The position numbers and the translations under genes are program-made. From Stramenopiles sp. TOSAG23-2 (lineage: Eukaryota), in contig LT649336.1 of NCBI GenBank assembly GCA_900128395.1, positions 1-36,528 of the forward strand: 36,528 bases of DNA. The letters are read 5' to 3'. How positions within the stretch are numbered: position 1 is the first letter of the stretch; the number at the start of each line of letters is the position of its first letter. A model generated the notes under the pieces. The model saw only the letters and a list, made by a program, of their open reading frames with translations, was not told the origin of the DNA and ran no database searches. Positions 2,059 to 36,528 of this stretch are shown here, in pieces.

Positions 2059-4377
2059 ATGAATAAATATGAAGTATTAGGTATCGTTGGTGAAGGGGCA
2101 TATGGTGTTGTGTTAAAATGTCGTAACAAAGATAATAGTGAAATCGTTGCTATTAAGAAATTTAAAGAAAGTGAAGACGATGAAATTGTAAGAAAAACTA
2201 CATTAAGAGAAGTAAAAGTGCTAAGGATGCTCCGGCAACGAAACATTGTGCACTTGATGGAAGCGTTTCGCCGGAAAGGTAAATTATACCTCGTGTTTGA
2301 ATACGTTGAGAAGAATTTATTAGAAGTATTGGAAGAAAAACCAAATGGTTTACCAAGTGACTTAGTTCGACGTTATGTTTATCAGCTATGTCGTGCTATT
2401 AATTTTTGTCATCAAAATAATGTTATCCATCGTGATATTAAACCAGAAAATTTATTAGTAAACCCGGATCATACATTAAAGTTATGTGACTTCGGTTTTG
2501 CGCGTACTGTGGCAAATAAAGGGCAACAATTAACCGATTATGTTGCAACTCGTTGGTACCGAGCACCTGAACTTTTATTAGGCTCAACAAACTATGACAA
2601 AACTGTTGATTTATGGGCGGTTGGTTGCATTATGGGTGAATTGGTCGATGGACAACCAATGTTTCCAGGTGAAAGTGAGATTGATCAATTGTACATCATA
2701 CAAAAAGTGTTAGGACCATTGACATCTGATCAAACAGAAATGTTTTTGAGAAATCCACGTTTTTTAGGTTTGAAATTTCCAGATATGTCACGACCAGAAA
2801 CATTGCAACGAAAATATGTTGGTAAATTAACGAAAAAAGCATATGGTATGATGTCGTTGTTCGTTAACATGAATCCAAAAGACAGGCCAACTGGGGAGAC
2901 GTGTTTGGAGGATCCATATTTCCACGGCTTACGTGAAGAGTACGATAAGAAAGATCGTTTACATAGTGGTAAAATAGGCAAAGGCAGTAGGAGCAGCCGA
3001 CCAAGTAGCAGGAACAAAAGAGACGATGATCGCGAAAATGATCGTTATGGTAATCGTCATCGCGATCGTGATGGTAGACGCAATGATTCACGCACTGGTT
3101 CTCGTGGTAGCAATAGCGGTGATCGAGGATATGGACATGGTCGCGATAGCAGACATGGTGGCGGAAGAGATAGTGATCGCGATGATCGTGATCGTGATAG
3201 TAGGGACTATCGTGAGAACAGGCGAAGGGAACGAGATAGTCGTGATTCTCGGGATAGGGAAAGAAGAGATCGTGATAGGGATTCTCGCTCGTACCGTGAT
3301 CGAGATGATGATAGTAGGAGCTCCAGAAGCTCAAGGCATAAAAGTGATCGTGATAGGGATTACGACCGTGGAAGCGATCGATCCTCTCCTCCGCCATCCC
3401 CTACTCCATCCAATAGATCTAGTTCAAGAGCACGTGTCAGCACGAAAAATATTGGGAAAAATCTTGGAAAAGGAAGTAAAAAATCAACTGGTGTTTCCTT
3501 ATTAAATGTACCTGCGAATTACGGTCGAAGTACGCAAGGAACGAAAGCATCGAGAATAAGCCGTAATGAAAATTTTCCAAGTCGACGCAAAGGCGTCTCT
3601 CCACCAATAACGCCACCATTGGGCAGCAATGCTAGTGGTAAGGGTTATAAAGTTAGCCACAGCCGTAATAAACGTGTTGATAGTCGCCAATCGCGTAAAG
3701 AACAGGAAAAGGAGCAAAGGCGAAAAGATCGTCGCAGGCGTGATGAAGAGAGAAAACATCGTAAAGCACGGGAACGTGATTCTGATTATGATCATGATTA
3801 TAACCACCATTCCAGTAGAAGAAGCAATCGGGATGATAGAGATCATCACCACCATCGAAGTAGTAATTATGATCGCCATGATGACGATGACAGCAGTTAC
3901 GATTCAAGGAGCCATGGACGACGTGGGCCAAATTCAAGACAAGGAGATGATTATCATTATGATAATCGTAGCAATTCCAGACGTGATCGATCGCCACGTG
4001 ATAATGGATATAGTAGTAGAAATAGTAAAAGCAAATATGGTTCAAAGAAATCTAGTAAACGCAATAATGATCGCCGTGGTGGTAGAGACAGCCATAGAGA
4101 TAATGATCGTGATCATCGTAAATCTTCGAGAGGAAAAGGCTCATCAAGACGTGAGGAAAAGAAAGAACAAGATGAGCCAGAGCGATACTTGCCACGTATG
4201 CGTGACGATGATAGTGAACATGGTAGTCAAGCTGGTGAATTTAATAGTAGTGAATATTATGTACCACCTATTCCTAGTTTTAAAGATGTTCATTCTCCAG
4301 GAACCCATAGAGGTGGTGGTAGTAAAAAAGATTCTTTCGCACCATTAGGATTTAGTCGTTTTGGCAATAAGTATTGA
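2059..4377 (+). CDS. CDKL5: Cyclin-dependent kinase-like kinase (CDKL5/LF5-like) with a long R/D/S-rich tail
   Basis: [32 protein letters not shown] helix [12 protein letters not shown] and [13 protein letters not shown] (TxY) are typical CDKL motifs. Confidence 0.9.
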
Positions 4378-4745
4378 AATCAAAAAGAAAAAAAAAGGAA
4401 GGAGAGAGAGATATCGATAAAAAATACTACGAAGCGGTACCGCGTACTAAATATATGTACTTCTTAAGAGATATATTTTAGATATATGCGCATTATATAT
4501 GATATTAAATGATGGTTAAAATCTAAAGAAGTGTTATCTTATGCATATAAATTTTACGAGTATTATTCTATCATATTCGTATAATAAAATATTACACTCA
4601 CGCATTTTCTAAAAAAAAATAAAAAAATATACTCTCTCTCGTAAAAAAAAATATTTTTTTAAATAAATACACGAGACACACTCTCTCGTATTTTTCTGTG
4701 TGGTATTCTCTCTCTCTCTCGCACTTTTTACTATTGGGGGTGTGT

Positions 4746-5318
4746 TTACAATAACAATGGTTCAGAAACGCCAAAAAGTTCCGTATCATAATACGCAATG
4801 ACTGATCTAAGCTTTTCGCTTGCTGTTTTTACTAAACTGTCATCTTCATTATTTTTCATTTCCATAACAGCCTCCTTTGCTCCAGATGTACCTTCATATA
4901 TCGCTAAATCTTTTGCATCGTCTGGGAACTCTTGAAGAAAGTATTTGATCCAAAATTCTATAAATGCAACATATTGCTCTGTTGATCCTCTTTCATATTG
5001 CTCTCCATTGTTTTTCAGTGTTTGTTTTAGTTGATTACTTCTCTGTATATCATTAAACGCGTTTACAGCACGTTGGCTACCTTTATACCTTTTTTTTACA
5101 TCTGAACTTTCACAAGCACTAATAATGGTTTCTAATATTGCAATACGCTCCACATCTGTATCCTCTTCTATCCACATCTCTCTGAATTTTCTTATTCCTT
5201 TATATATTTCTACTGGTAGTTCAAGCATATTATAAATTTGGGTTAAAAAATTGGCGTGAAAAGCTGGATCAGTACTAAATTTGCCATTAAGTCTTTTCTT
5301 TACTTCATCTTTTTCCAT
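4746..5318 (-). CDS. Hypothetical protein, 190 aa, probably helical
   Basis: ATG-initiated ORF with globular-protein composition between AT-rich flanks; no family recognised. Confidence 0.7.
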   Translation of the reverse strand: MEKDEVKKRLNGKFSTDPAFHANFLTQIYNMLELPVEIYKGIRKFREMWIEEDTDVERIAILETIISACESSDVKKRYKGSQRAVNAFNDIQRSNQLKQTLKNNGEQYERGSTEQYVAFIEFWIKYFLQEFPDDAKDLAIYEGTSGAKEAVMEMKNNEDDSLVKTASEKLRSVIAYYDTELFGVSEPLLL

Positions 5319-12188: not shown

Positions 12189-12232
12189 TTAGATATTATT
12201 GCCTCAGGGAACCTTGAGGCAATAATATCTAA
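12189..12232. repeat. Perfect 18-bp hairpin/inverted repeat
   Basis: ttagatattattgcctca (12189-12206), 8-nt spacer, tgaggcaataatatctaa (12215-12232). Confidence 0.9.
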
Positions 12233-12367
12233 CACTACATTATTCTTTTGGAGAGTTATGCATAGGAATTATCATGAGTAAATTTTAAAAAATTAAATTA
12301 TGCGTAAATTAAAAATAATAAAACGAGATGGATAAAAATCTACGAAAAGTGTTTTATACTTCTTCTT

Positions 12368-12521
12368 CGTAATAATTTTACTTCCCGCCGCAAAATCAAA
12401 ATATTATATTACGATTGTATATATATATAAAATATATATATATATATGAAATATTATTCTTGAGATTGAGTATTGAGCAGCAGTCATTATTATTTACCAC
12501 ACAGGAAGTAAAATTATTACG
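12368..12521. repeat. Perfect 18-bp inverted repeats bracketing a 118-nt (TA)n-containing spacer (MITE-like or foldback)
   Basis: cgtaataattttacttcc (12368-12385) and ggaagtaaaattattacg (12504-12521). Confidence 0.8.
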
Positions 12522-14713: not shown

Positions 14714-17700
14714 TTAGCACCATAAATTTAAACCATGCCATGCTCTGTAATGCACTCTATCATCAGTTGCTAATATCATCAATTGTTTGATTTGTTCTTT
14801 TACCTTTTTATTTATATCGTCTTCATTATTATTATTATTATTCATATTATCATTCTCATTTTTCTTATTATTGATTTTATACTCTTTTTCCAATCCTTTG
14901 ACAAAATTTTTTAAGTAATTTATGTTTGCTGGTACACATCGTTTGTTGGAATTAAGAGTATCATACAAAATAGAAAATGGTGACTCCATTGCAATTTTTC
15001 TCTCTACAAATTGTAAACAGGTTTTGTTTTGTGTATTAAGCTTCAGACTTTGAAAGCTTTGCACTAAATTGCTGGAGGATTTTTGACGCCATTCTAATAT
15101 TGGATCAGCAAGATACGACCTCATGGAACTTAATAGTAACGATTTCTCACTAATCATTGCTTTCATAACCGTGCACATATGTGCTTCCAACGCAGCATTA
15201 CGGTTGGGATGGGGTGCCATTAAATGAACCATCTGTTTTGAATGTCTAAATGGTATTAACTCAGGAACAGGCAAAAGAAATGTTGCAGAACCAAAGGTAT
15301 GTCCAAAATCAATTGGTATAAGTTCGCAATCACTTTTGCGTAATAAACAATTGCCTAAATGGCGATCGCCAATTCCCAATAAATATGTTGCGATATTTAT
15401 AACCGCTCGTGATGATATAATTTTGCTACGTAGAGTTACAAATGTTTCAGCTGTAGATGCTATCGAACGTAAATAATTTCTAAAGCGCAAATTGTTAAAT
15501 GTTGCCGTCGTCTCTTTATATTTACTACGAATTTTTTCTTCTCCTCTGGTACTTGCAGCATCTTTGTATATTTTATCATAAGCATCAGAACCAGATTTAT
15601 TGCCATGTTCTTTTATGAATTGGGCAATAGTGTCTCTATTTACATATGCTTCTTTATTTTTTTTTTCTGGGCCGTATGTATCAGATAGCGTGCATGTACC
15701 ATCAACCCATTCGATTAGCCCCGCTGTCATCGTAATAGGTACTACCGCGAATGTATTTACTTTCATATTATGCTTTCTACAATCTGGTTTTGAACGGAAA
15801 ATGCTATTCATTGCTTCAAAGACTTGTTGCACGCGCTGATCATTTCTTAAATCCTCGTCGGACTTGGCTAAAAAACGATATTCAACTGAATCGCTTCCAT
15901 AAAATGTTAAACGCTTTGGTGCGCGCATCGATGATAAAATTAACATTGATTCTTCAACATACGCAATTGCAGCATGCCCATTTGGTAATGGCATGCTTTT
16001 CGTATTACGGTATTGTCCTGGAATCTCAATATTAGAATGTAACAATGTCAATAAATATGGACTTTCTATTCTCATTTTTTGCCCTTTATATATGTCTGCA
16101 TACTTGTTTGTCATGATTGCCTTTTTATTTCTAATAATTTTCATTTTCTTGTACTTCGGATCAATTGGTGCTTTTCTTTGAGCAATTTCAATGATAGCAT
16201 CCGCAAATTGAGTCAAATTTGGTACTTTTTGAAATATTCGTTTTAACGGTACAACAAATATCGTATCGGAATCAGATAGATTCATACTTTCTTTTGCAAT
16301 GCGAAAATCGTAATAAACAGCCTGTGGGTATTTCTCTGCAACATTAATAATTATATCTTTCAATGCCATTCGCATACTGTGATTTTCTTTAAAAAATGCC
16401 ATCATTAATGGAATAAAACTTAAAAATTTCCAAGGTTCAACTTGATATTTTTTTGCTTGAGACGAGAAATACGAGCAAATTTTCATATTGCTATCTGGAT
16501 GTGCCATTAAGCTTAAAACTTTTGAAAAACGTTCTGATGCAACAATACTGCCCAATTTCATTGCATGCAATAAATTGTCTATGAATTTAGTGCTCAAATC
16601 ATAAAACTGTGCTTTGTGAAATTTCACCTCATCGGCATTCTCCTTGGTGCTGTTGTTGCTGCTGCTGCTCCTACCATTACTGTTATTACTCTTCTTTTCT
16701 AAATTATCCAACAACTTTTCATCAAATAATGCTAATGCACAGTATCCTGATGGACCGCCAGCCTGTGTATATGCAGTCCTTGCATTGTTACAAATATCAT
16801 GAATTATCATGTCATTGTATCCTTTAGACGTATCTTCATTTTGTTTTAAAAAATCTTCTAGATGTATATTCATTTTCTTTGAAAATATATTACCTTGCAA
16901 AATATAAAATTTCGCTTTTGTTGTTTCACTTTCTTGATCCAACAGTTTACTTATTTTCAAATCTTCTAAAATTGAGTTTGCTTTATTCAGCGCAGGTATA
17001 CTTTTATCATCTACTAAGTAGAAATATCGAGCGGTTATATAACCATCCTTAAAAGTTTTTTTAAGTTGGCTGTCCTTTCTAATTTTGCTTGCTGCGACGA
17101 TACTATTTCTTGCTTTCATCTTATTATTTTGAAGGAATGATCCTTCTGCAAGACGATATAGACAGCTCATTCTCGCCTCGTCCTTTCTATTGCTTTCTGG
17201 TATTGTATGAATACAAGCCATACGAGTCTGGTGTAAATCATCCCACGTTTTGACTGAATCGTATCTATGGGAAGGCCAACTTTTCTCCCAACTAGTTACT
17301 AGACGGTCAAAATCATCATAACCAGCATTATCATTTTCCTGTAAGGTTACAAAATCTTGGCATGAAATGAAAAGTGGAAGCATTGACAGAGCATCATGTC
17401 GTGCTGAAAACGAATATACATCTAAGCTTGAATAACGGTTTAGCAACTTATCTATTTCTTCCCAAACAATGCCATGCGCACCTTTCCATTCTCTTCGATT
17501 AACTTTACTGAAAAAGTCTTTTAAAAATAACTTCGTGGATTCATCATCAGATGAGGTATCTGAATTCGCTTGATTTAAAGCATCAGTTTCATATTGCTTT
17601 AATCCATCCATAATTTCCTCTTCTTTTAAAGTCTCGTAAATGCTATTTAAACATTCCCATCCATCATTTCCATCATTGGCTAATCTGTCGTTTGCAATTA

Positions 17701-20700
17701 TGTTTTCCTCTATAACAACTGCGCCAGCTGCTAAGTTTAGGCTACTTATTGCTTCGTTTTTTATAATTTCCAACTGCTCTATGCTAATATCATCCTTCGT
17801 AGGCCCAGATAATAATGTGAAACAGTTTCGAATGAAAGAGAAATCCCTTTTGTGGATATTATCGGTATTACTTCGTGCTAGAATATTTAGTATAGAATGA
17901 TAACCTTCATCCTTCAAGGCATACAAAAATATGCTATTCGCAGCCATATTAGCAAGCTTCTTATCAAATATGAATAAATTCAATAAAGGATCTATTAAAT
18001 CTTTGTATTTCAATTTAGTATCTGGTAGCTCGCCAATCCTGTAACTTCGATATAGTACCTTTCGTTTACTTTCCTTCTCGTACTTTCTCCGTTTGCTTCT
18101 TGAATACGGCATAGCGAAAGAGCCATTATTAGGATCCATTTTTCTTTTACGGTAAAGCTGTATTCCAAAGTTTTGTGATGCTAATTGTGTAGAAGCTCCG
18201 CTACTATTGGCTCCACCATCTTCGGACTGGGTTAGACTAAATAACATGTCACCGTCATTTTGTGTTGCCATTACCATATCGCCATAATTGCTGTTGTTGT
18301 TACTAGTGGCAGTTGACAAAGACTGAGAAGCCCAATTATCATCTATATCCATATTTGTCGATTGAGAAGTGGACGAAGGTATTATCATTGAGGATACCAT
18401 TGATGAAAATGCAGGTTCCATATACAAGGATTGCGTCATGTCAAATCCGTTTCCACTTCCCGCATTTATTTTTAAGTCTGTGAAATCACACTTGTGTATC
18501 TCTTTATTGCATCTTGGTAAGAATGAATTTTGACGATAATCAGCACCATTCTTTACCAAACAGAGCATTAAATAACTGGACAACTGAGAATGAAAGTCTT
18601 CCATATCTTCTCTGATAATATTTGGATTTAACAATGACAAAGCACGGTTGACACTACTTTTTTGTGGTAGAATTTCATTCCAGTATGATAGTAAACAATC
18701 TTTTACAACTCTATAACGATTTTTCAATCCTAATAGGAGAATGTCCCTCAAATATAGCGTACCTTTATCAAAGTATTGTAATTTAGCATCATCATCTGTT
18801 AGCATTGTTGCGGTGGTTGTACTCGTTGTAGTTGTAGTTACCGGTGTTACAACATTTTCCCTATTTTTTGCAACCAATCGTCGATCCATCGATATGCATA
18901 GCTCATAAAACAGTATACAAATATCAGGATTTTCATTAGTAATATATGCCATTGTAAAATTTGTATTTGTAATCACTGTAGTAGATGATTCTTTGTTAAT
19001 TTTAATTGAAACAAATGTTGATTTTGGCCATTCCTCTATCGGCTTTTTCTCAATCCACAATGTCATTATCTCTAATAAAAACCTTTTAGTTTTTTGATTA
19101 TCTTGTGAAGCTAGCATATCAAATGCTGTTTCCAAGTGCTCAAAACATAATGTTACAAGATCTACCGATACCTCCTCCCATGTCAGCATTTTGTGCGTAA
19201 TTTCTAACGCCAACGCCACGCTGTCGCTATCCAATAGCGACAAACGACCCAAAAAATTACTGAAGAAATCGCGGCTATTGCATAGGCGTGGGCCCAAATG
19301 CAGCGCCACTTGAAGCAGCTTTTTTGTTTCTGCCTTATTGTGAGGATTAAATTTGGTTTGTAACTTCATCCTTACTACATCATAGAATGCCTTGCCTAAA
19401 ATTTCATCTTCCTTCGATTCTTGTGCAATTGTACATATAAATCTAGAAGCATTAAACCGTATATCAATATATTTAGCTTCAAAGACCTTATTTCTAATAC
19501 CATGAACTTTGTCATATAAGAACGTGTCCTTATCCATGATGCTACTAATTTTCTCCCAATTCCAAGGTATAAATTCGTTAATAATACAATATATAGCAAG
19601 CGCCAGAGCTTGTAATTGTGACGCCCATCGCACATTGCTTTTTCTGTTTGATTCTTCCATCCACTTAAAAAGCCAATGGGAGTTATTACAAATTGCATTA
19701 CAGCCTACCATGTAAATATCAAAAATTAGCAACGTGTCGACAGATAGTATTTGAGAATTCATTTCTTGAAACCAATGCTTAAACAGTATTTTAAAATGAT
19801 CGAGTGCTTTTGACTTAATGACACCTTTCGTATATGCTAATACCTTGATCCAGTTATTGAAAAACGTCTTCAACTTGGACAACATCGACAAATCCGCTCT
19901 ACCACTATTTGCTACGTTCTTCATCATTACATCGCCGTGATCATCATGCCAGTCAGCTAATATTGATGTCATCCTTTTAAAAAAGTCTTGAAAGCGATCA
20001 TCAAACAGTCGTGTGTCGGCACTATAATCAACTAAAGTTGATATGCAAAATGCTTCCCATTCTGTTGAAAATGGTTTAAAGTACTCAGGCATTTCACTGA
20101 TTAAATGTAAAATAAAAATTTTCAAGCACAATGGTGTTTCGGTTGCATTCGTCCCAATATCTAGAAGGATTTTCATAAATTCTGGTTGAGGTTTGTCAGC
20201 AACCCTTATCCACATTTGTTGTTCTTCGTCAAATGTAGCCCAAGCGTTATATTCATAATTAGGTTCTGGATTTTTATTTTGATTCCAAAGATACTCAAAT
20301 ATACTACAAGTAGTAGTAACACAATCTGCATTAGCATTCCTCCAGTCTTGTGATGGGTACGGAACATCTACTATTAAATTTTTCCAATGCATCAAACTAT
20401 TGTCCGCTTTTTTGCTTTTGCTATTAATTAAATTTACTTGAGTTTGCATTTTCCTTTGTGTTTTAATAGCACAATGGCACAAACACAAGAAAGCAGCAAC
20501 TTTGCAAGAATGGTCAACACTGGGATCTTGGTGCAATATAATTTTCTTCGATTGAAGAATGATATGCATCGTTAACGCAGTGTCTTTTCCATCAGCAAAC
20601 CTTTTGCCGAGATGCGACTTACCTGTACCGTAACCTTGAACTAACTCGACGATTTGATTCTTAATTTCCTTATCATCTAATCGCTGGTATAAAATTTGTA

Positions 20701-23700
20701 GTAAAGAAAATGAATATTTAATGAAACTGGAATTTACGTTTCCAACTTTTGATGCATCTGACAGAGGAAGAAGCCAATCAAAAAGAGGCTGATTACCCGG
20801 TAAGCTCTTATAACCGGTGCGAAATATGTTTGAAATAATATCTTTTTGACAATGCAGCAAATATGGAATGCACACTTTTTTTAGAACCATCTCCTTTAAA
20901 TCCTCGCCATACAACTTCAAATTATTATTAAATAGAATTGAAGTCGAGAGCTCCATGATACTGGAGCGTAATCGTACAACCATATCAGGAGCAGGATCCT
21001 TCGCATATCTTGTAATAATCTTTTTAAGCATTTGATCAATTTTTTCACGCAACAAATGGTCTGGGTGTAGAATTTTCCTACACAAAATTGAAAAATATTC
21101 ATGGCAAAAAATACCACCAACATTTAAAACTAGAAGTCCGACTTCAACAGCTTTGCAATTTTCACGCTCGTCGCTCGATCCAGCATCTACGACTGAACTT
21201 GGGCCTGGGAAGTGGTATCTGAAAATTCTTTTTTTTAATATTTCACATGTTATTGCTGAACATTTTTTTGCGTCTCTTCGTTCTATCGTACTAGACGATT
21301 TTAGAAGTGTACCAGAAAGTCTGAAAGCCTCCATTTTCAATTCAAATGGTGGTTGATCACCAACATCCATTAACAAAAAGTGTAATAAATCCAAAAGGAA
21401 TGAATCTGTACGTTCATTGCTGACATACTTTTCACTTTCAATTATTGGTATTAAAATTTGTAAAAATGAAATCAAAGTTTGCAATATTGGATTAACTCCA
21501 TTCATAACGAAATTACTTTGAGAGTTACTGTTTCCATTACTTTGAAGTTGCGATCCCCAAAGACGATTTTGCTCTAAGAAATAATCATTAAATGCTTCGA
21601 TTAGTTGATCAAACGATAAAATTTCCGTCGTATTATACTTTTTATTGTATAAAATAAAACGAATAATAATTTTTCTTAACAAATGAAGAATGCGAGATGA
21701 TTGAAAAGCAAAACGGAACATATCCTTGGAGATGCTTATCCAAACGTTTGGCTGCATAAAAAACGATGTTATGGCTCCAATTATTGAGTTATCGTGACTT
21801 TTATTCTTGTCATTGATATTTTGCTGAAGATTTTCTGACATAGAAAGTATGTAACTCAAAAAGCTTGATTTTTCAATCATATACAATACATCCTTTGGCT
21901 CTAAGTGTATTTTATTAAAATTGAACAGAAAAAAAACAACGCATTCGTAAAAGTCCATCAGTAATGGGGATAAATTTCTTTCTGCAACAAGTTTTAATTC
22001 ATTTATGATGAGATTGCAAAACTTGTTAATGCAAGTATTGTAACGATCGTCGTTCGAAAAAATTAATTTTAAGACGCCATGTTTATTAGACAAGGTCAAG
22101 CCATTCAAAATTAACTTCTTCGATTTCAAAGTATATTTTACGTTTCCTTCCATATCCAGACCATCTCGAGTAACTCTCAAAGTCTCATCAATTTCATTAT
22201 AAATTAAATCTAGTTTCTTCACAACATTAATAGAATCAAAATCACTGCTACATAATGTCGATTTATGTTCCTAATATAAATTATAATTTCAGGTTAGTCA
22301 TTAAACTTAATTTAGTAGTGGAAATATATATGTTTATACATAAGGTCAAGAATTTCATGAATATTGGCTCAGAAACATATGTTATAGACGAATCCCATCT
22401 TTGTTTTACTTTCGATATCAAGGACGAACCTTTATCTCGGTCATGGATCATGTAAGATCCGAACAAAGATCAAATAAAACTCTGGTAATTAGTGACAACG
22501 TTTTCACCTTTTTTTTTTTTAGCATAAAAAATATATACCAAAACATAAGAAAAAAGACAAAAAAACTGAATTTCCACCTTTTGCATAATTAAATATCATA
22601 CAATGATGTATTGCATCCGGAAGGATACAAAATAAAAACCAAGTTAGGGTTAACAGTACCAACTTTGCCTTGCAAAGCCATACTACAACGGTAAAACGTC
22701 GGTCTAAAAACATATTGTTGTATCATCACAGCCAAACAGAAATCATATTGTCTTCAAAGATTTTAAAGTGTTTCAGATTTACATACCCCGCTAGCAATTG
22801 TAAACAACGTTTTACATGCTTCCTCTTGTAACGTTTCGTGAGGAACTTGCGCTTCATTTGAAATTGTGGTTGGATAAAAAAGTGCTGCAATTAATAATGG
22901 CACCACACCCTTTAACAAATCTCCGGCGTGTTTTGGATTTATGGTATTATTAGAGAAAGAAGCTAGAGCTTCCTTGTCTTGAAATAGATTATCAATGAAT
23001 TTGAACAATTCGCAAATCAATGTACCAGGCAATATTGTAGTGTTTGCTGTTCTACCAGCAATATTTATCAATTCATAAATATTGTCAATAATATGTGAGA
23101 CTGATGCTCTTGTTGAAACGGAGTCTCCATTAATATGTCGCTTTTTATTTATACTGGAACTTCCACCAATATCATGGTTGTATGATGCTAGGCTGCTCAT
23201 TTTAATCATGTGCTTTTCAATAGCCCAATTATATGCAAATAAAGATCCTTCTAGACCTCTATAATACGATTTCAAATCTCCTACCTGTAAACGATAACGC
23301 AAGCTGTTTTGATTTTCAAACAAATATACAAAGTCCGGCTTCTTTGTTAAACTATATCCAGCTTCAGATTCATATTTTGCTCTGGCTATAGAACTGAACA
23401 ATTTTGAACAAATAACGCGCATTTCTATAGATTGACTAGAGATCTGACATAAAATATATTCCATTAATTGATCCAAATTGTTCATAACTTCCCCTGTATA
23501 ATTGTCCCCACCACTTAGATGTTTGCATATAATCCTCGTAAAGTGTTCAATTATATCGCCCAATGATTTACAATTATCAAATTTATTATCTGTGAAGCTA
23601 TTCTCATTGCTTTTTAAAGCATTTAAAGTGTGGTATATGATATCTAACGAATACTTGCGTATTAGCTCCGGTTCTTCACGAAAATCTCTGTAAAATAAAT

Positions 23701-26700
23701 TGATTGTATTTGCAGCACCAATTTGTTTGTGCGTATTTGGATTTTTCAACATATTGAACAAACGCCGCATTAATGAATCAATCTGCACAGGGTTCGACTC
23801 ATTACTACCGCTGCTGGAACTGCTACTGCTTCCTCTACTTTTACGTGAACGAGAATTGTTTTGTTTTATAGCCCATTTCAAAAATTCCGCTAAAGCTCGT
23901 GTGCTTACATCCTTTAGTGCAGCATCCTTATCGTTGCTTGCTCCAATCACGACACAGTTCAACCACGTAACCGTCTCTGGTGCAGTTTGGTTAGTTTTAC
24001 GTGATTTAGCTCTGGAAAACCAATGGCAAAGTTGCTTTACAAGTGGTTCAAATAAATTTCTTGTAAAATCGTATGAATCTGTTGCTAAACGTAAAATGCA
24101 CGGGAAAACTTTTTCGTATATTTGACACAATTCTGGTTGATTCACCTGTGGTAACATATACAAGATAATAGTATGCAATGCTTCGCATGCAGTTGTTTTA
24201 ATATCATAGTCACCGCTCAGCTCTGCTAATTCAATTATTCGAGGAATAATTTCAGTAAGATCCAATTTATATTTAGCATTTATTTGGTCAAATATCAATT
24301 CAATTTTCAACACATCTTTTGAACTGGTCCATCGTAATCCTTTTGCAATGTCTTTCTCCGATGACCCAACTATGTCATGTACACGTCCACCAATTCTTCC
24401 TAGAAAATTCAGGATATATGTTCGTAAGCTGTCCCTTCCTTCTGCATTACTTTTACTTGCTTTCTTCGACTCTTGGTGCGCTTCTTCTTCATCTTCTAAT
24501 AAATATTCGTTTAATTTTGGTAAAATAGATGGTAAACATTCATCGAGCTTATCATCAGACAATGTTTGACGCCATTTTTCTAATGCTTTTACAGCAACCC
24601 ATGCCACTGGTCGATAAGAGCGGCCAATAGTTAATGCACTTTGTAAAATGGGGGTTTGAACTTTCAAAAAATATTCCATCATTTGATGCGGAGCGGACAA
24701 TATCATTTTTGCTGCAGAAACAAACAGTTCGTCGCGATATTGTGTAGAACGCCTTTGTATTGTTTCAACGTATGATAAAACAATTTCAAAGCACTTTTCA
24801 CGATCGTCTTTAATCACACTATTCTTATCATTCACATTGCCGCTGTTACTATTATTGCTAAAGAAGTTTCTCATTTGGTTCTTATCATTAAAAAAATTTC
24901 CTTCACTGCATAATTCAAAAAAAATTTGAATGATTTTATAAAAACCACTTACTTCATAATGATCTAGAGATAATGGTATTAGTTTTGTCAGGAATGGGAT
25001 GGCCCATTTCAAACTACATTGCACGTATCTGTTGTACAAGGTATTTGACAGTTTACGTTTTAAAATTTGATTAATTGACGTATAAAATTCAATTAAATTC
25101 AAAAAATGATTATAATCAATTGGATTTTGTGGTTCTTTTAAATGTTTTCGCAACATAAATTGTGTCACTTCATTTTCATTATTAGTAGATTGAGTCAGTG
25201 CCTCATTTTCATCATCCTTGTCCATATCATCTAATTCAGGATCCTTCAGTGCCAAATTGAAACTTTGCAACTTGTTTAATATAGACTTAATTAATGCATT
25301 TATGATACTTTGTGCCACATATAATTCATCTCTGCATGTCCATTTATGAGATGATGACTGTGCAATAATATTTCCTTCACCATTATTGCTGTTATTGCTA
25401 GTACTACGTTCGGATAAAAATATAAATGGTTCACTTAATGCATAAATTAAAATTTCACTCATAAATTTCGAGTATACATCAGATAATTTGAAATTTACGA
25501 AGGAATCCTCAACCTTATTACTGTTCATATCATAAGTGATTCTTTGTAATGCTTCAACTTTGTACATTGACATATTCATACACTCTACAACAATACTGTC
25601 TAAAGTTGCCAGGAAAGTTTCATTATTTTTCGTCGTAGCATCCATTAAATGAACCATTTCTTTAGCAAAATTTATACGATCACTATCTTTGTATCTTTTT
25701 TCCCATGTCTGGTAATAGTTATGGACGACATGGCGTAAAACTTTGCTCAACGGATCGTACAATGCAGCATCAAGACTCTCTTCCGGCATGTAGTATATTA
25801 TGGATGAACATGCAGATATCATTGCTTGTTCATCACTTCCTTTTGCATAAATTTCACTATACCCATTTGAGTAATAATTTGCCGCACTATTGCGCGATGT
25901 TAAAATATTGGACATGTAATTTTTGAGCAATTTATTAATAATTATGTCCTTCAGCTCTTGCGTTGAATCATTAAATTTTGCTTTCATTGCGCCAGCAAAA
26001 TCTCCAATGATATAAATACCAAGTTCTTGCGTTTTGCGACTTTTATCTTGTAAAAGATTCATTGTAGACTTCATAACCAGTTGGAATATAATATCATATC
26101 TTTTCATATCTTCACTATTGGCAACAATAGTAGTGTTTCTCTCTGAAGTAGTGGTAGTTGTATCCATTTCCATCATCATCATCATCATCATGCTATTATT
26201 GTTACTACTACTACTACTACTGCTATTATTGTTGTTGTTATTGTCATTATTTATCTTTTCGTTGTGAAAATTATATATTTCATTATTAAATACACGTATG
26301 ACAGCACGTAAACCAAATATTACAAATTCACGTAGTGTTTTTTTATCTTTACTTAAAAATATAGTTAATAGGAGACGATATATTTTTTCACCATTTTTAA
26401 TAATCCTTTTTGAAAATAAATGAGAATGTTTTGAAATAAATTCAATACCAGCTTTTGGTACGCTATAACGTTTTAAATCTTGACGAACATAAATGGTTTT
26501 TTCGTATATGCAAGAAAATAAATCATTCATTTCATTTTTTTTGCTGAAAATATCAGAAATACATGTACCATCTTTAAATTTATCGATTATTTCAATAGCA
26601 GCACTTAATCCATTAATAGCTCCTGAAATGATATTAGCTTTCCCATCGCCACCTTCTTTAGCATATTCACCAGTTAATCCGTTCAATAACGTACGATATA

Positions 26701-27400
26701 TTCCATCCCTATTGTTTTTCAATTCGAGTGGATAAACAGAATATAAACGACCCAGTAATTCCAATGCGGAACCTTTCAATACCCCATACGCTTTTGCACC
26801 TTTTCCAATGAGATTTAGTGTCATATCATAAAGCGGTCGTGACTGTCTACCGACATTATTAGTGAAAAAACCCACCTTGAACTGTGACGCCGTCACCAGC
26901 GGTGTTCCGTTATCATCCAATTCACTTGGTGAAGCTTTTAATATTTCAAACAACAGGTTAAATACAGGGGTGCGTACAGTTGCTGATTTATTTTCACGCA
27001 TTAAAACTTGATAAGATACCTCGATAATTTTATTGAGAAAAGTTTTATATTGTGCAAGATTATTGGTATCAGCTTTGAACAATGACGTAAGTTGAACGAC
27101 AACTTCTTTTCTAGCTTCATTCATTTCCTTATCTCCATTTCTTCGATTAATGGAAGCTTTATTCAAAAAGGTAAGGATATCCGGTGGATCATCAGAACAG
27201 AGTAAGAGTGAGATAGCACGTGTATGCAAAGACCTATTACTTTGAATTGTTTCTGTTTTACTAATGTTGAAAGCACTCTCCACTAATTGTTTTGGGCTAG
27301 CTTGCGATGTTTTGATTCCTTTCTCCGCAGAATCTGCAAGTTTTAATAAAACATCTTGAAGTCTTGATATCTCCAAGGAGGAGGTATTCATCGACGTCAT
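14714..27400 (-). CDS. PRKDC: DNA-dependent protein kinase catalytic subunit; exons 27400-22787 and 22270-14714, ~4056 aa
   Basis: PIKK motifs EIPGQY, FLAKSDEDLRNDQR, GIGDRHLGN and [23 protein letters not shown]; DNA-PK-like LYRSYRIGELPD and FEPLVKQLCHWF; FATC-like end. A phase-0 GT-AG intron joins the two track ORFs in frame. Confidence 0.93.
22271..22786 (-). other. Spliceosomal intron of PRKDC (516 nt, phase 0)
   Basis: GGG|GTATGT donor at 22786, branch site TGACTAAC at 22300-22293, TATTAG|GAA acceptor at 22271; joins ...IASG to EHKSTL... in frame. Confidence 0.88.
22364..22735 (-). ncRNA. Intronic box C/D structured RNA (~372 nt); candidate telomerase RNA
   Basis: TTGGC-T-GTGATGA (C box 22729-22723)...CTGA (D box 22372-22369)-GCCAA terminal K-turn; long-range helices; TAACCCTAAC at 22652-22643 directly 3' of a long hairpin. 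Confidence 0.7.
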
Positions 27401-29659: not shown

Positions 29660-31168
29660 TTACAACTTTGATGATTGTCTAAAATCATCAATTAAACTAG
29701 TCAACTTATTTGTACTATGATTACTATTTTGATCTAATCCAGATTCAATAAATCGTATTAAGCTACTTTTCATTTTCGTTTCTGTAGCATTTGCTGGTGC
29801 AGCTTGATACACACCTCCATCTTCACTTCCAGATGATTTACTATTACTAGTACTAGTAGCAATATTATTATTATTACTCAAAGTCTTTGCTTTTTCTATC
29901 AAATCTAACATTACATTATTTAAATCAGTACAAAACTTATTGCATGTATGAATATGCTGTTCACCAATACAAATACCAAGTGCTGAAGGGTTCTCTCCAC
30001 TAAATAATGCCCATCCTTTTTTTCGCATTTCTTTGTTAATTTGTCTGTTTGTAATTGTATTAGGCATGGATGATCGAAAACCAACTATACATATTTCGGA
30101 AGCGCCAATCGTCTCAACACCGACAATTGAATGAACTCCATCTTTCATTGTGATATACGCCTCGTGTATATGTTTTAATGTATTATTGTAATGTTTTAAC
30201 ATAAACTTCATAGTTGCCCATGACGCGGCAATTGGTCCACCACTTCTACTACCTTGTAATGTTGGTGTGATATAACCACCTCCGGTTGCTTTACCGCCTT
30301 TTACTGGGGCTACTGGATGAAACACAAATTGCCTTAGCTGATTGTTACGAAAGATTACTGCGCTTACACCTTTGCTGGAAAATCCATACTTATGCAAATC
30401 AATAGAGATGGAAGTAACACCTAGGTTTTCAAATCCATTTGCTGCATCGATTGCATACCCATCATGTGATAATAAATTCAAATTTCTTGTATATTGCAAC
30501 AATATCCCTCCTAAACAATTATCAATATGCAATCCGATATCGTATTCTTTTGCTAATTCTGATAAACTTTTGATATCATCAACAACGCCATGTGGAAACG
30601 TCGGTGCGGAGGAATAAATCATAATTGTATTTTTTGTTATGAGCGGCTCAACTTCATGTCTTGAGATTCTTTGCGTTATTTCATCTGGTTTCACTAAAAT
30701 CAATTTCATCCCGAAATAGAAACATGCTTTGTGACATGCGCCATGGCAAGTAGATGCAGCGATAATCTCCGGAGTCTTAATATTTTTCGAATATGCCCAC
30801 TCTCTATGTGCTAATAAAGCTAATAAAATACTTTCTGTTCCACCAGAGGCCAGTAAGCCTTTTTGAGCATCTTGTTGACCTTTACAGAAAGTAATACACA
30901 ATTTTATTAAATCTGTTTGCATGTTGGCAATTGATGGCCAAACAGTCGGATACAATGCATTTGTTGAACTAAATAGACGAAAAGCTTCATTTTGAATTTT
31001 GGCCACTGTCTTACCTATAGATTCATTGGACTCCTTATCATAGTAAATTCCACCCCATCTTTGCTTTGTTGCTTCACTTGATAAATCTTCTGTATCTTTT
31101 TCGTTTATTAGATCCAATAAACGTAAAACTTCATTGGAACTTTGTTCTATTAATTTGTTGCTATTCAT
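29660..31168 (-). CDS. SGPL1: Sphingosine-1-phosphate lyase-like PLP enzyme; no N-terminal TM; C-terminal SKL
   Basis: SGGTESILLA, HKACFYFG, SAPTFPHGVVDDI, LHIDNCLGG, SISIDLHKYG (PLP lysine) and TPTLQGSRSGG. Confidence 0.88.
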   Translation of the reverse strand: MNSNKLIEQSSNEVLRLLDLINEKDTEDLSSEATKQRWGGIYYDKESNESIGKTVAKIQNEAFRLFSSTNALYPTVWPSIANMQTDLIKLCITFCKGQQDAQKGLLASGGTESILLALLAHREWAYSKNIKTPEIIAASTCHGACHKACFYFGMKLILVKPDEITQRISRHEVEPLITKNTIMIYSSAPTFPHGVVDDIKSLSELAKEYDIGLHIDNCLGGILLQYTRNLNLLSHDGYAIDAANGFENLGVTSISIDLHKYGFSSKGVSAVIFRNNQLRQFVFHPVAPVKGGKATGGGYITPTLQGSRSGGPIAASWATMKFMLKHYNNTLKHIHEAYITMKDGVHSIVGVETIGASEICIVGFRSSMPNTITNRQINKEMRKKGWALFSGENPSALGICIGEQHIHTCNKFCTDLNNVMLDLIEKAKTLSNNNNIATSTSNSKSSGSEDGGVYQAAPANATETKMKSSLIRFIESGLDQNSNHSTNKLTSLIDDFRQSSKL

Positions 31169-31323
31169 TATTTTTATATTTATGTTTCAATTCTTTTTTT
31201 CTCTTTGATCTCTTGCCAACATAATGTTACAGTATATCATCTGTTGTTGCTTCTATAATTATTACGTAAAATACATTTTGACATAACCTATTATTTTGTA
31301 TACAAGTGCACAATAATATTATT

Positions 31324-34737: not shown

Positions 34738-34835
34738 TATGAAATCATACAAAATATCATATTTTAGATGGAAATTCACTTTTTCAACTATGAAATCATA
34801 CAAAATATCATATTTTAGATGGAAATTCACTTTTT
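34738..34835. repeat. Tandem duplication, period 51, 47 identical bases
   Basis: tatgaaatcatacaaaatatcatattttagatggaaattcacttttt at 34738-34784 and 34789-34835. Confidence 0.9.
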
Positions 34836-36528
34836 TACATAAATTATAAATATCGTTTTTGGAATATTGAAACCTATCAACAATTTAGTATAATATTTTT
34901 GTACTAAATAGTGTTAGACAAAGCCGACACTACAAGTGAAAACCACCTATCAAGTAGTGTTACAGCTATAGGGTTACGCGTTTTTTTCAACTTTTAACGG
35001 ATATTCAAATATGAAGTAGATACAAGAATATTGATATATTCAGTAAAATTATTACCAAACATATAAAAATTGATCGTGGATACTTATTTTTCTAAAGTTA
35101 TGTATATATATATGTAAAAAACTACCTTTTCTCATTTTCAAATTTTACATTTTTAGTCCATACTGTGTCCATACTAATTTGGAAAAAAATCACCATTTTG
35201 AAAAAAATTCGTTACCTTGTCAGTTTCATTTAAAACATAATTAGATCAAAATATGTATGCACTTCTTTCCTTTAGGGATGTGTTAAGAGATGTGTCTTAT
35301 TTTGAATCAATTCGTAGAAGATTTAGATAGAAAAAATCGACACATTGTATTTCGGTGATATTTCTGATAATTTTTCAATATTTTGGTGATTTCTTGGTCT
35401 ATAACCCTAAACTAACCCGATCTTGAAAATCACATATCGGTGTAAAGCTCGACTTATACGTGATGTATGGACAGGAGAACGGTCGGGGATTGTTTAGGTG
35501 ATCAGTATATAACTTTTAGGTATTGGTTTCAGCTTTGTATATAATGGGAAAGTATAGAAATGGCATTCGTGTGAGTGTATGTTGGTGTTGAGAAATAGAG
35601 TGAGAGGTCCCGTCATGTACGGGTATGACCCCACAATGCTAAGTAGTGCTAGCATCTCTAACCCTAACGTAAATGATCAAAATGCACGATATTTTTAGTA
35701 AACATGGTTTTACTGTTAAACTCCCCAGACCACGACCTACAGACATTATATACGTAATAAATAACGGATATGCAACGTTTCAAAGTCTAATTTTAATATC
35801 TTCAATGAAAGTTTTCAACCTTTCATGATTTTCACCATTTACATGGAAAAGTGCTCTAATACTAACTCCATGCTAACGTACGATTTAAAAAAAAAATTCA
35901 GCACTTTTCTTTAAAAACATAATTATACACGTAAACTCCCAGAGAAAAGTTAAATATATCACCTACGATATAGAATCTACGACATTTTATCAAAATTTTT
36001 TATGTTTTGTGTTAAAAAGGTAGATTTCTAGCTCCATTTAGAATTGTTGTGATTCAAAATCGATTTGGATTTCTAGGCCTTTTTCAGGCACATGGGAATC
36101 CATTACAAAATAGGGTATAGTCAACACAATATATCTCGAGTCAATGAAAATATTAATACAAAAGTAGTACGAGATCTCATTTTTACATATAAAGAGCCAA
36201 ACTTAAGAGTAAGTTGATGACAACTGAGTGCCAGGAACATACTTTACTAATGACGTTTCAATTGCATGTCAAAGTACCCTTACTATGGAATAGGCTTGTA
36301 AAACCTTAATAAAAGTGTCCAAAAATATGCATTTTTTAGTGAAAATTCACTTTGGGTCTAGCGTTTCATGTAAATGTAATATTTATTTTGGTTGGAGTTT
36401 AGAGATACAAGTTATATATATAAAGAAAGGATGTCGAAGTTTATATGACTTCAAAATGTTGGAAATGATGTTTGGAGACGAAATGCAAATTCGATATATC
36501 TGATGAAATTTCTCAATTTTCGTACCCA

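Follow-up and report, generated by a model that had tools for sequence, protein, structure and literature searches.

A 36,528-nucleotide stretch of contig LT649336.1 (positions 1–36,528) from Stramenopiles sp. TOSAG23-2 (assembly GCA_900128395.1; this whole stretch is called the window below) carries a DNA-PKcs gene on its minus strand, and the single intron of this gene raises the question as to what kind of RNA it encodes. An earlier note on this DNA had proposed a telomerase RNA in the form of a box C/D RNA. The intronic box C/D RNA is real, expressed, and conserved. As to its function, we infer, strongly but short of a demonstration, that it is most probably the telomerase RNA of a MAST-4-related marine stramenopile, matured as an intronic box C/D ribonucleoprotein (RNP).

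The host gene consists of two open frames. Exon 1 (22787–27400, minus strand; 1,538 codons) contains the Pfam domains DNA-PKcs_N and DNAPKcs_CC1-2, and exon 2 (14714–22270, minus strand; 2,518 codons) contains DNAPKcs_CC5 and PI3_PI4_kinase. The phase 0 intron between them (22271–22786, minus strand; 516 nt) is delimited by the donor GTATGT (22786–22781) and the acceptor TAG (22273–22271), with a branch site GACTAAC at 22299–22293. Splicing out these 516 nt affords a single open DNA-PKcs frame of 4,056 amino acids, so that the gene has one intron only across approximately 12 kb of coding sequence. RNA sequencing data were examined for four of the six runs that contain part of the window, each from a different study. 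Contigs in two of the four (X15 and X18) contain the spliced joint (22269 to 22786), at which exactly 516 nt are skipped. The pre-mRNA is spliced at this intron. Base 4 of the donor (22783) can be T or C within the species (metagenomic locus L053; proteins P0121 and P0135), and both donor variants occur.

The window is AT-rich with long unbroken reading frames, and the DNA runs that contain its sequence are mostly marine or seawater metagenomes. Among named homologs, a EukProt entry labelled Stramenopile-MAST_4 is closest to the host gene (identity approximately 40% in the first half and 30% in the second). In a search of 1.84 billion proteins, this entry scored 417 bits compared to 187 for the best other match, a partial self-match excluded. 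Closer relatives with 57% and 45% identity are also present. On the basis of these protein comparisons, the source organism probably belongs to MAST-4 or to an adjacent clade. MAST-4 genomes contain 0.36–0.56 introns per gene (PMC5269757).

Is the intron simply discarded after splicing? All four RNA runs contain contigs that lie within it: 22366–22539 and 22574–22724 in X15, 22370–22723 in X16, 22368–22611 in X18, and 22368–22566 in X19. The 3′ ends of these contigs (22366, 22370, 22368, and 22368) fall within 3 nt of a D box in every run. The 5′ ends in X15 (22724) and X16 (22723), the only runs that reach the 5′ side among the listed contigs, both fall in a C box. None of the contig pieces listed for the four runs covers the intron flanks. 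Such ends are expected for a C/D-protected RNA that has been trimmed from an intron (PMC10557570). Hence, part of the intron survives as RNA that is bounded by the C and D boxes, and the prediction of a discrete RNA of approximately 370 nt was borne out at the level of contigs.

This RNA of approximately 360–370 nt (22364–22735, minus strand) contains every element that the earlier note had listed, each at the minus-strand position given for it. The 5′ end (22723–22735) comprises one strand of a terminal stem (22735–22731; pair probabilities 0.92–1.0) and the C box GTGATGA (22729–22723), which matches the consensus exactly and starts 57 nt into the intron from the donor. The 3′ end (22364–22372) comprises an equally exact D box, CTGA (22372–22369), and the second strand of the terminal stem (22368–22364), where the RNA contigs end. 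Just inside these boxes, a closing helix (5′ strand 22702–22719, partner 22389–22373) appears in both the minimum free energy (MFE) and the centroid structure, with probabilities of 0.92 and 0.98 for the two tested pairs, as had been predicted; it masks the bases upstream of the D box. A 12-bp complementarity with one bulged base between 22690–22701 (5′ strand) and 22508–22496 was proposed to form a core-enclosing helix; the bulged base, 22505, is polymorphic in three of the four RNA runs.

The core of the RNA begins with a hairpin (22653–22686) that may serve as a template boundary element. The stable part of this hairpin (22684–22655) is predicted with pair probabilities of 0.97–1.0, and like the terminal stem and the closing helix it exceeds 0.9. 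It is followed by the candidate template TAACCCTAAC (22643–22652), the 10 nt of which comprise one TTAGGG repeat and 4 alignment bases. On the 3′ side of the template lies a U-rich segment (22624–22642) that could provide a pseudoknot strand or a triple-helix loop, and that is alignable in two diverged contigs from X18, described below. Further toward the 3′ end, folding predicts a long hairpin between a U-tract and an A-tract (22507–22567; inner stem 22543–22534 with 22526–22517), which a loose end of one X18 contig resembles. The multibranch 3′ domain that had been claimed corresponds to a distal stem capped by a three-way junction (22392–22475), where the MFE and the centroid structure are identical and which an X18 loose end partly matches. 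By its position, this domain would be the counterpart of CR4/5 or P4–P6 in known telomerase RNAs.

Could these features have arisen by chance? The exact arrangement of C box, D box, and 5-bp stem occurs once in the 36.5-kb window, and exact boxes with a terminal stem occurred in 68 of 20,000 shuffled introns. The 372 nt RNA folds with −97.1 kcal/mol (z −4.35), which none of 100 shuffles equalled, and three of 66 other 370-nt stretches of the window gave a lower z (8 shuffles each). When the RNA was shuffled 20,000 times, 15 of the shuffled sequences contained a TTAGGG-type template of at least 10 nt, and 127 contained one for at least one of six common repeats. One may still argue that no stable RNA exists, that the contigs represent pre-mRNA, lariat, or DNA carry-over, and that boxes, hairpin, and template arose by chance in AT-rich intron sequence. 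Indeed, the intron contigs have a depth of 2–5 for this species, like scattered exon contigs; they are strandless, exact ends and level cannot be read from them, and they were compared without a DNA run or a silent stretch as control. Given 3′ ends confined to 22366–22370 in four studies, 5′ ends confined to 22723–22724 in two, no listed piece in the flanks, the shuffling statistics above, and the conservation described next, we regard this explanation as extremely unlikely.

To what extent is the locus conserved? Public protein sets store the DNA-PKcs of this clade as two halves (P0122–P0124 and P0301–P0304), because the intron was not recognised. Gene prediction that disregards introns continues past the donor, and the resulting proteins record where the intron starts. 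The alignments of two relatives at approximately 35–40% protein identity, P0122/P0124 (with the MAST-4 label) and P0123, end at the donor column, and the next residue in each is a valine (GTN); P0124 also reads into the intron. Second-half proteins P0302, P0303, and P0304 start near the junction. These protein ends support the presence of an intron at this position in distant relatives. Among the representative-search matches, none beyond these three lineages ends at the intron codon, as judged by inspection of estimated C-termini. The gene model P0149, considered as a spliced relative, skips the junction region and gives no spliced junction.

The read-through tails of these proteins also carry information on the intron itself. 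The tail of P0123 ends in HDE-stop, a peptide that an exact C box could encode; this box would lie 46 nt from the intron start, compared to 57 nt in the window. A C-box peptide of this type was found in one of 147 control tails. The tail of P0122 ends in SFVRQSLCC-stop, and the window encodes GFARQSWYC-stop in the frame of the first three bases of the template. When the terminal 12-mer of P0122 was back-translated, its best fit among approximately 73,000 window positions was the hairpin, with 29 of 36 nt. Raw back-translation over all protein tails was rejected as a measure because peptides rich in Ser, Leu, and Arg score high anywhere (an unrelated part of the P0122 tail reached 30/36), and it was replaced by a degeneracy-corrected score. 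By this score, the terminal 12-mer reached 17.8 bits compared to 12.2 for the runner-up; one of 5,586 control 12-mers attained 17.8 bits inside the RNA. P0122 also has C-box-like codons 77 nt before its stop, which is the distance from C box to template in the window, and its stop falls where the template begins. The letters fixed by its codons would replace the U–A pair 22682–22657 by C–G, a compensatory change; they would also break the two lowest hairpin pairs and leave approximately 2 nt between stem and template.

Run X18 contains, in addition, two diverged contigs that can be aligned to the RNA. The first (depth 21) aligns over approximately 22624–22714 with differences that include 22654, 22678, and 22679; by inspection, none of the listed differences lies in the template and all are compatible with the hairpin. 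Alignment of this contig is lost between 22623 and 22568 and returns at 22567–22541, and, by inspection, its loose end is similar to the U/A hairpin and likewise folds. The second contig rejoins the window RNA at 22627 and 22437, and, again by inspection, its loose end matches 24 of 30 letters of 22414–22385. The parts that can still be aligned in these RNAs, which may come from DNA-PKcs introns, are the hairpin, the template, and the U-rich segment. An intron-hosted discrete RNA, a kept intron position, and an alignable hairpin, template, and U-rich segment fit the properties of a telomerase RNA.

A metagenome scan for the template followed by a U-run returned 79 loci, two of which (L053 and L126) represent the same locus in the same species with DNA-PKcs more than 99% identical. 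The other 77 matches lacked DNA-PKcs and resembled the locus in nothing more than the motif or a stretch of 30 nt. As the pattern relied on the conservation of GG and U5 behind the template, the scan may have missed relatives. Three patterns gave 0, 51 (a calibration of chance), and 0 matches in viral contigs, and a scan of prokaryote genomes gave 0 matches. Alignment of DNA-PKcs to viral and prokaryote contigs confirmed no locus, and the single plasmid match (25 nt) was of low complexity and was dismissed. None of the Rfam telomerase families matched at the gathering threshold in the window or at E values up to 10 around the intron. These families are lineage-specific, and we therefore do not count the absent match against a telomerase function.

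The RNA could instead be a long orphan small nucleolar RNA (snoRNA) or small Cajal body-specific RNA (scaRNA) of the box C/D type, a conserved single-stranded segment of which would pair with ribosomal RNA (rRNA) or small nuclear RNA (snRNA) for modification or as a chaperone; the telomere-like 10-mer would then be fortuitous or belong to an antisense element. The exact C and D boxes, the terminal stem, and the intronic site all suit such an RNA. Typical C/D guides are several times shorter than the window RNA, and long C/D RNAs of 330–420 nt do occur among vertebrate scaRNAs. A conserved stretch in the middle of eukaryotic 18S rRNA is complementary to approximately 9 nt that overlap the template, so that part of the motif may be explained by pairing with rRNA. 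Nevertheless, the closing helix sequesters the bases before the D box, the RNA contains no C-like 7-mer with up to one mismatch besides the C box itself, and at the spacing of a guide the conserved segment is not followed by a D-like box. Among the snoRNA and scaRNA families of Rfam, none matched inside the RNA at E values up to 10. In a comparison that covered neither 28S rRNA nor snRNAs, the longest Watson–Crick duplex with the 3′ third of the 18S rRNA from one unrelated eukaryote (L131), a fragment outside the site just named, was 9 bp, a length reached in 118 of 200 shuffles. An orphan C/D RNA also leaves a template beside a conserved hairpin unexplained. We consider this alternative unlikely.

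Two observations from these comparisons stand apart. An Rfam match to Phe_leader (E 0.87, 22474–22583) was rejected as U/A low complexity. The source of the 18S fragment, positions 3600–4543 of a contig from a viral collection, ends in a eukaryotic 18S rRNA with an insertion of approximately 125 nt relative to the Rfam model; the contig is probably non-viral or a chimera.

Several points weigh against assigning the RNA to telomerase, in addition to the limits of the contig data given above. The labyrinthulid Aurantiochytrium is near MAST-4. Its telomeres consist of TTAGG (PMC3622300; bioRxiv 10.1101/2023.06.15.545109), a repeat that this template would not make; TTAGGG has been deduced as the ancestral stramenopile repeat (PMC3622300). 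Within the RNA, the core-enclosing helix of the earlier note stands as a complementarity, but its pair probability is approximately 0.36 and drops to 0.07 with the template forced single-stranded. Similarly, the pseudoknot-like segment is present as a U-rich stretch that aligns in the X18 contigs, but several partner stems compete for it with pair probabilities that make none decisive. One candidate pseudoknot, recognised by inspection, would combine a P2 stem (22642–22639 with 22620–22617) and a P3 stem (22632–22625 with 22586–22579). The comparison with the P0122 tail was noticed post hoc. Elsewhere in the window, chance alone gives other 12-mers of this tail scores of up to 19.7 bits; in addition, the final base of the P0122 C box would be a mismatch, its stop codon could be other than TAA, and the template would lie past the stop, outside the peptide. 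Altogether, the evidence from homologs is indirect and consists of peptides, one partial contig, and two loose ends of 30 letters. Finally, a second copy of TAACCCTAAC occurs at 35659–35668 (plus strand), which brings the window total to 2 versus 0.07 expected. This copy lacks structure, and its presence makes the motif less rare in this genome than the shuffles imply. The overall proposal of the earlier note, a telomerase RNA matured as an intronic C/D RNP, thus stands with respect to the box-bounded intron RNA, the kept intron position, and the alignable template region; the core helix is weak and no pseudoknot pairing is decisive.

The second template-like site (35658–35668) was examined as a candidate in its own right and rejected, because it folds no better than its shuffles (z 0.12; 48 of 100 as good) and has no C/D arrangement. 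It is an 11-nt match to the complement of TTAGGG and, together with another telomere-like motif at 35402–35417 (both plus strand), lies in the non-coding 2.3 kb at the right end of the window; the two motifs are possibly interstitial telomere-like sites.

This second template-like site, and a search of the genome confined to the window, leave room for another explanation: the intronic RNA may be a non-templating telomere-related RNA, such as an inactive paralogue or a decoy that is bound by TERT or telomere proteins. The functional telomerase RNA would then be encoded elsewhere, for example, by an RNA polymerase III (Pol III) gene. Blastocystis has reported candidates for Pol III-type telomerase RNAs with the template CCCTAA (PMC8287931), and telomerase RNA paralogues occur in plants (PMC12133305). 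However, the second site has the folding and the missing boxes just described, and of the stramenopiles analysed in PMC8287931, Blastocystis and Proteromonas alone are reported to have conserved type-3 promoter elements. Moreover, a locus and a boundary hairpin that are kept across lineages with host proteins 30–40% identical are unlike a decaying paralogue. We judge this explanation to be very unlikely. Neither does the intronic RNA itself look like an independent Pol III gene: it lies within a spliced intron and contains internal runs of 5 to 7 U, although no search was made for the promoter element. Runs of U terminate Pol III (PMC5175330), and the internal runs argue against transcription by this polymerase and fit an intronic Pol II origin.

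How might a telomerase RNA be produced and used in this setting? By analogy with snoRNA biogenesis, exonucleases would trim the debranched intron until they are blocked by Snu13, Nop56, Nop58, and fibrillarin bound to the C/D kink-turn, which would also bring the 5′ and 3′ ends of the RNA together. The C/D motif would then contribute to stability and localisation rather than guide methylation. Judging from the anatomy of the RNA, TERT may bind to its core. The last 4 bases of UAACCCUAAC would align the telomere end and the next 6 would be copied, adding GGGTTA, and the hairpin that ends 2 nt before the template may halt copying at this point. The U-rich segment after the template could assume the role of the pseudoknot, and the distal three-way junction that of CR4/5. 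Supply of this telomerase RNA would be coupled to transcription of DNA-PKcs.

To our knowledge, telomerase RNA has not been identified in most eukaryotic lineages, because sequence similarity cannot find it. Among the closest known systems are the telomerase RNAs of trypanosomatids, which carry C/D boxes recognised by Nop58, Snu13, and fibrillarin (PMC5175330, PMC11206666). The RNAs of Trypanosoma brucei and Leishmania share with the window RNA C/D boxes and a template-adjacent hairpin, and their core-enclosing helix and distal stem would have counterparts in the candidate elements of the window RNA. Trypanosome telomerase RNA has no proven pseudoknot and works without one (PMC5175330). In contrast to the window RNA, which measures approximately 360 nt, comes from a cis-spliced intron, and is closed at both ends by its C and D boxes, the trypanosomatid RNAs are independent, trans-spliced Pol II transcripts of approximately 1 kb from another supergroup.

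An intronic origin is known from Caenorhabditis, where telomerase RNA is released by splicing from intron 2 of nmy-2 and trimmed by the snoRNA route, at an intron position conserved among relatives (PMC12921731). The window RNA shares the host-intron origin and the position kept in relatives. The Caenorhabditis RNA differs in that it uses H/ACA boxes and dyskerin and resides in an animal myosin gene, and a C/D screen in that system gave no convincing matches (PMC12921731). The window RNA ends on its 3′ side in a D box and a terminal stem, where animal-type telomerase RNAs carry H and ACA boxes.

The order of parts in the window RNA matches the model of plant-type telomerase RNA, in which a long-range closing stem, P1c, a P1.1 boundary hairpin that directly precedes the template, a U-rich loop, and a distal stem with a three-way junction follow each other (PMC8287931). 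The CCCTAA-type template is common to the window RNA and the Blastocystis candidates. Unlike the type-3-promoter Pol III telomerase RNAs of plants, ciliates, and Blastocystis, the window RNA is intronic, C/D-bounded, and equipped with internal U5–U7 runs. Pol III transcription of telomerase RNA has been concluded to be conserved across the supergroup Diaphoretickes (PMC12133305), and a promoter-based search that was successful in plants and ciliates found stramenopile candidates only for Blastocystis (PMC8287931). With intronic box C/D snoRNAs, the window RNA has in common the RUGAUGA and CUGA boxes, the terminal stem, and the release from a spliced intron (PMC10557570). It differs from C/D snoRNAs and scaRNAs by the paired bases before the D box, the missing C′ box, the absent Rfam match, and a conserved core around the template.

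C/D-type and intronic telomerase RNAs are thus each known already, and it is their combination that is new in the literature searched, in accord with the novelty that the earlier note had suspected. Titles and abstract openings of open-access papers contained no intronic C/D telomerase RNA, no telomerase RNA from a MAST lineage, and none in a DNA-PKcs intron; this search is limited by the fact that "C/D" is poorly searchable as a phrase, and it covered PMC8287931 apart from the supplements on candidates and promoter screens.

The window contains a few other features unrelated to the intron. The strongest fold signal sampled (z approximately −6) comes from 12189–12521, between two convergent genes; this region comprises a 21-bp hairpin (12189–12232) with a 2-nt loop and 95% complementarity as well as an inverted repeat of 18 bp (12368–12521), the perfectly matched arms of which are 118 nt apart, and may be a small transposon remnant or an RNA. 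Another gap between convergent genes (4380–4770) gives z values of approximately −4 on both strands and contains short direct repeats; it likely represents low-complexity 3′ ends. A direct tandem repeat of approximately 45 nt was recognised by eye at 34739–34828 in the non-coding right end. The minus strand encodes an enzyme similar to sphingosine-1-phosphate lyase (29660–31186), with a small cluster of marine relatives of 67–70% and 43–49% identity and far from named homologs; a search with this gene likewise returned no close relative with a name.

What would a telomerase RNA at this locus mean? It is probable, if somewhat less so than the telomerase function itself, that this clade of uncultured, abundant marine stramenopiles moved its telomerase RNA from the Pol III gene class proposed for plants, ciliates, and Blastocystis into the sole intron of DNA-PKcs, where the RNA is closed end-to-end by a C/D kink-turn. 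If this is true, it would be the first telomerase RNP of the C/D type to be processed from an intron, and telomerase would have adopted C/D proteins twice, independently. The route of biogenesis would be new, and the RNA would depart from the Pol III origin that has been proposed as conserved (PMC12133305). With approximately 360 nt, the RNA is small enough for direct reconstitution. The finding would also point to introns as the location of those stramenopile telomerase RNAs that promoter-based searches have missed, and it provides a recipe by which to look for them: C box, hairpin, template, and D box in long conserved introns of intron-poor genomes. In the organism itself, the supply of telomerase would be tied to a gene for end-joining repair.

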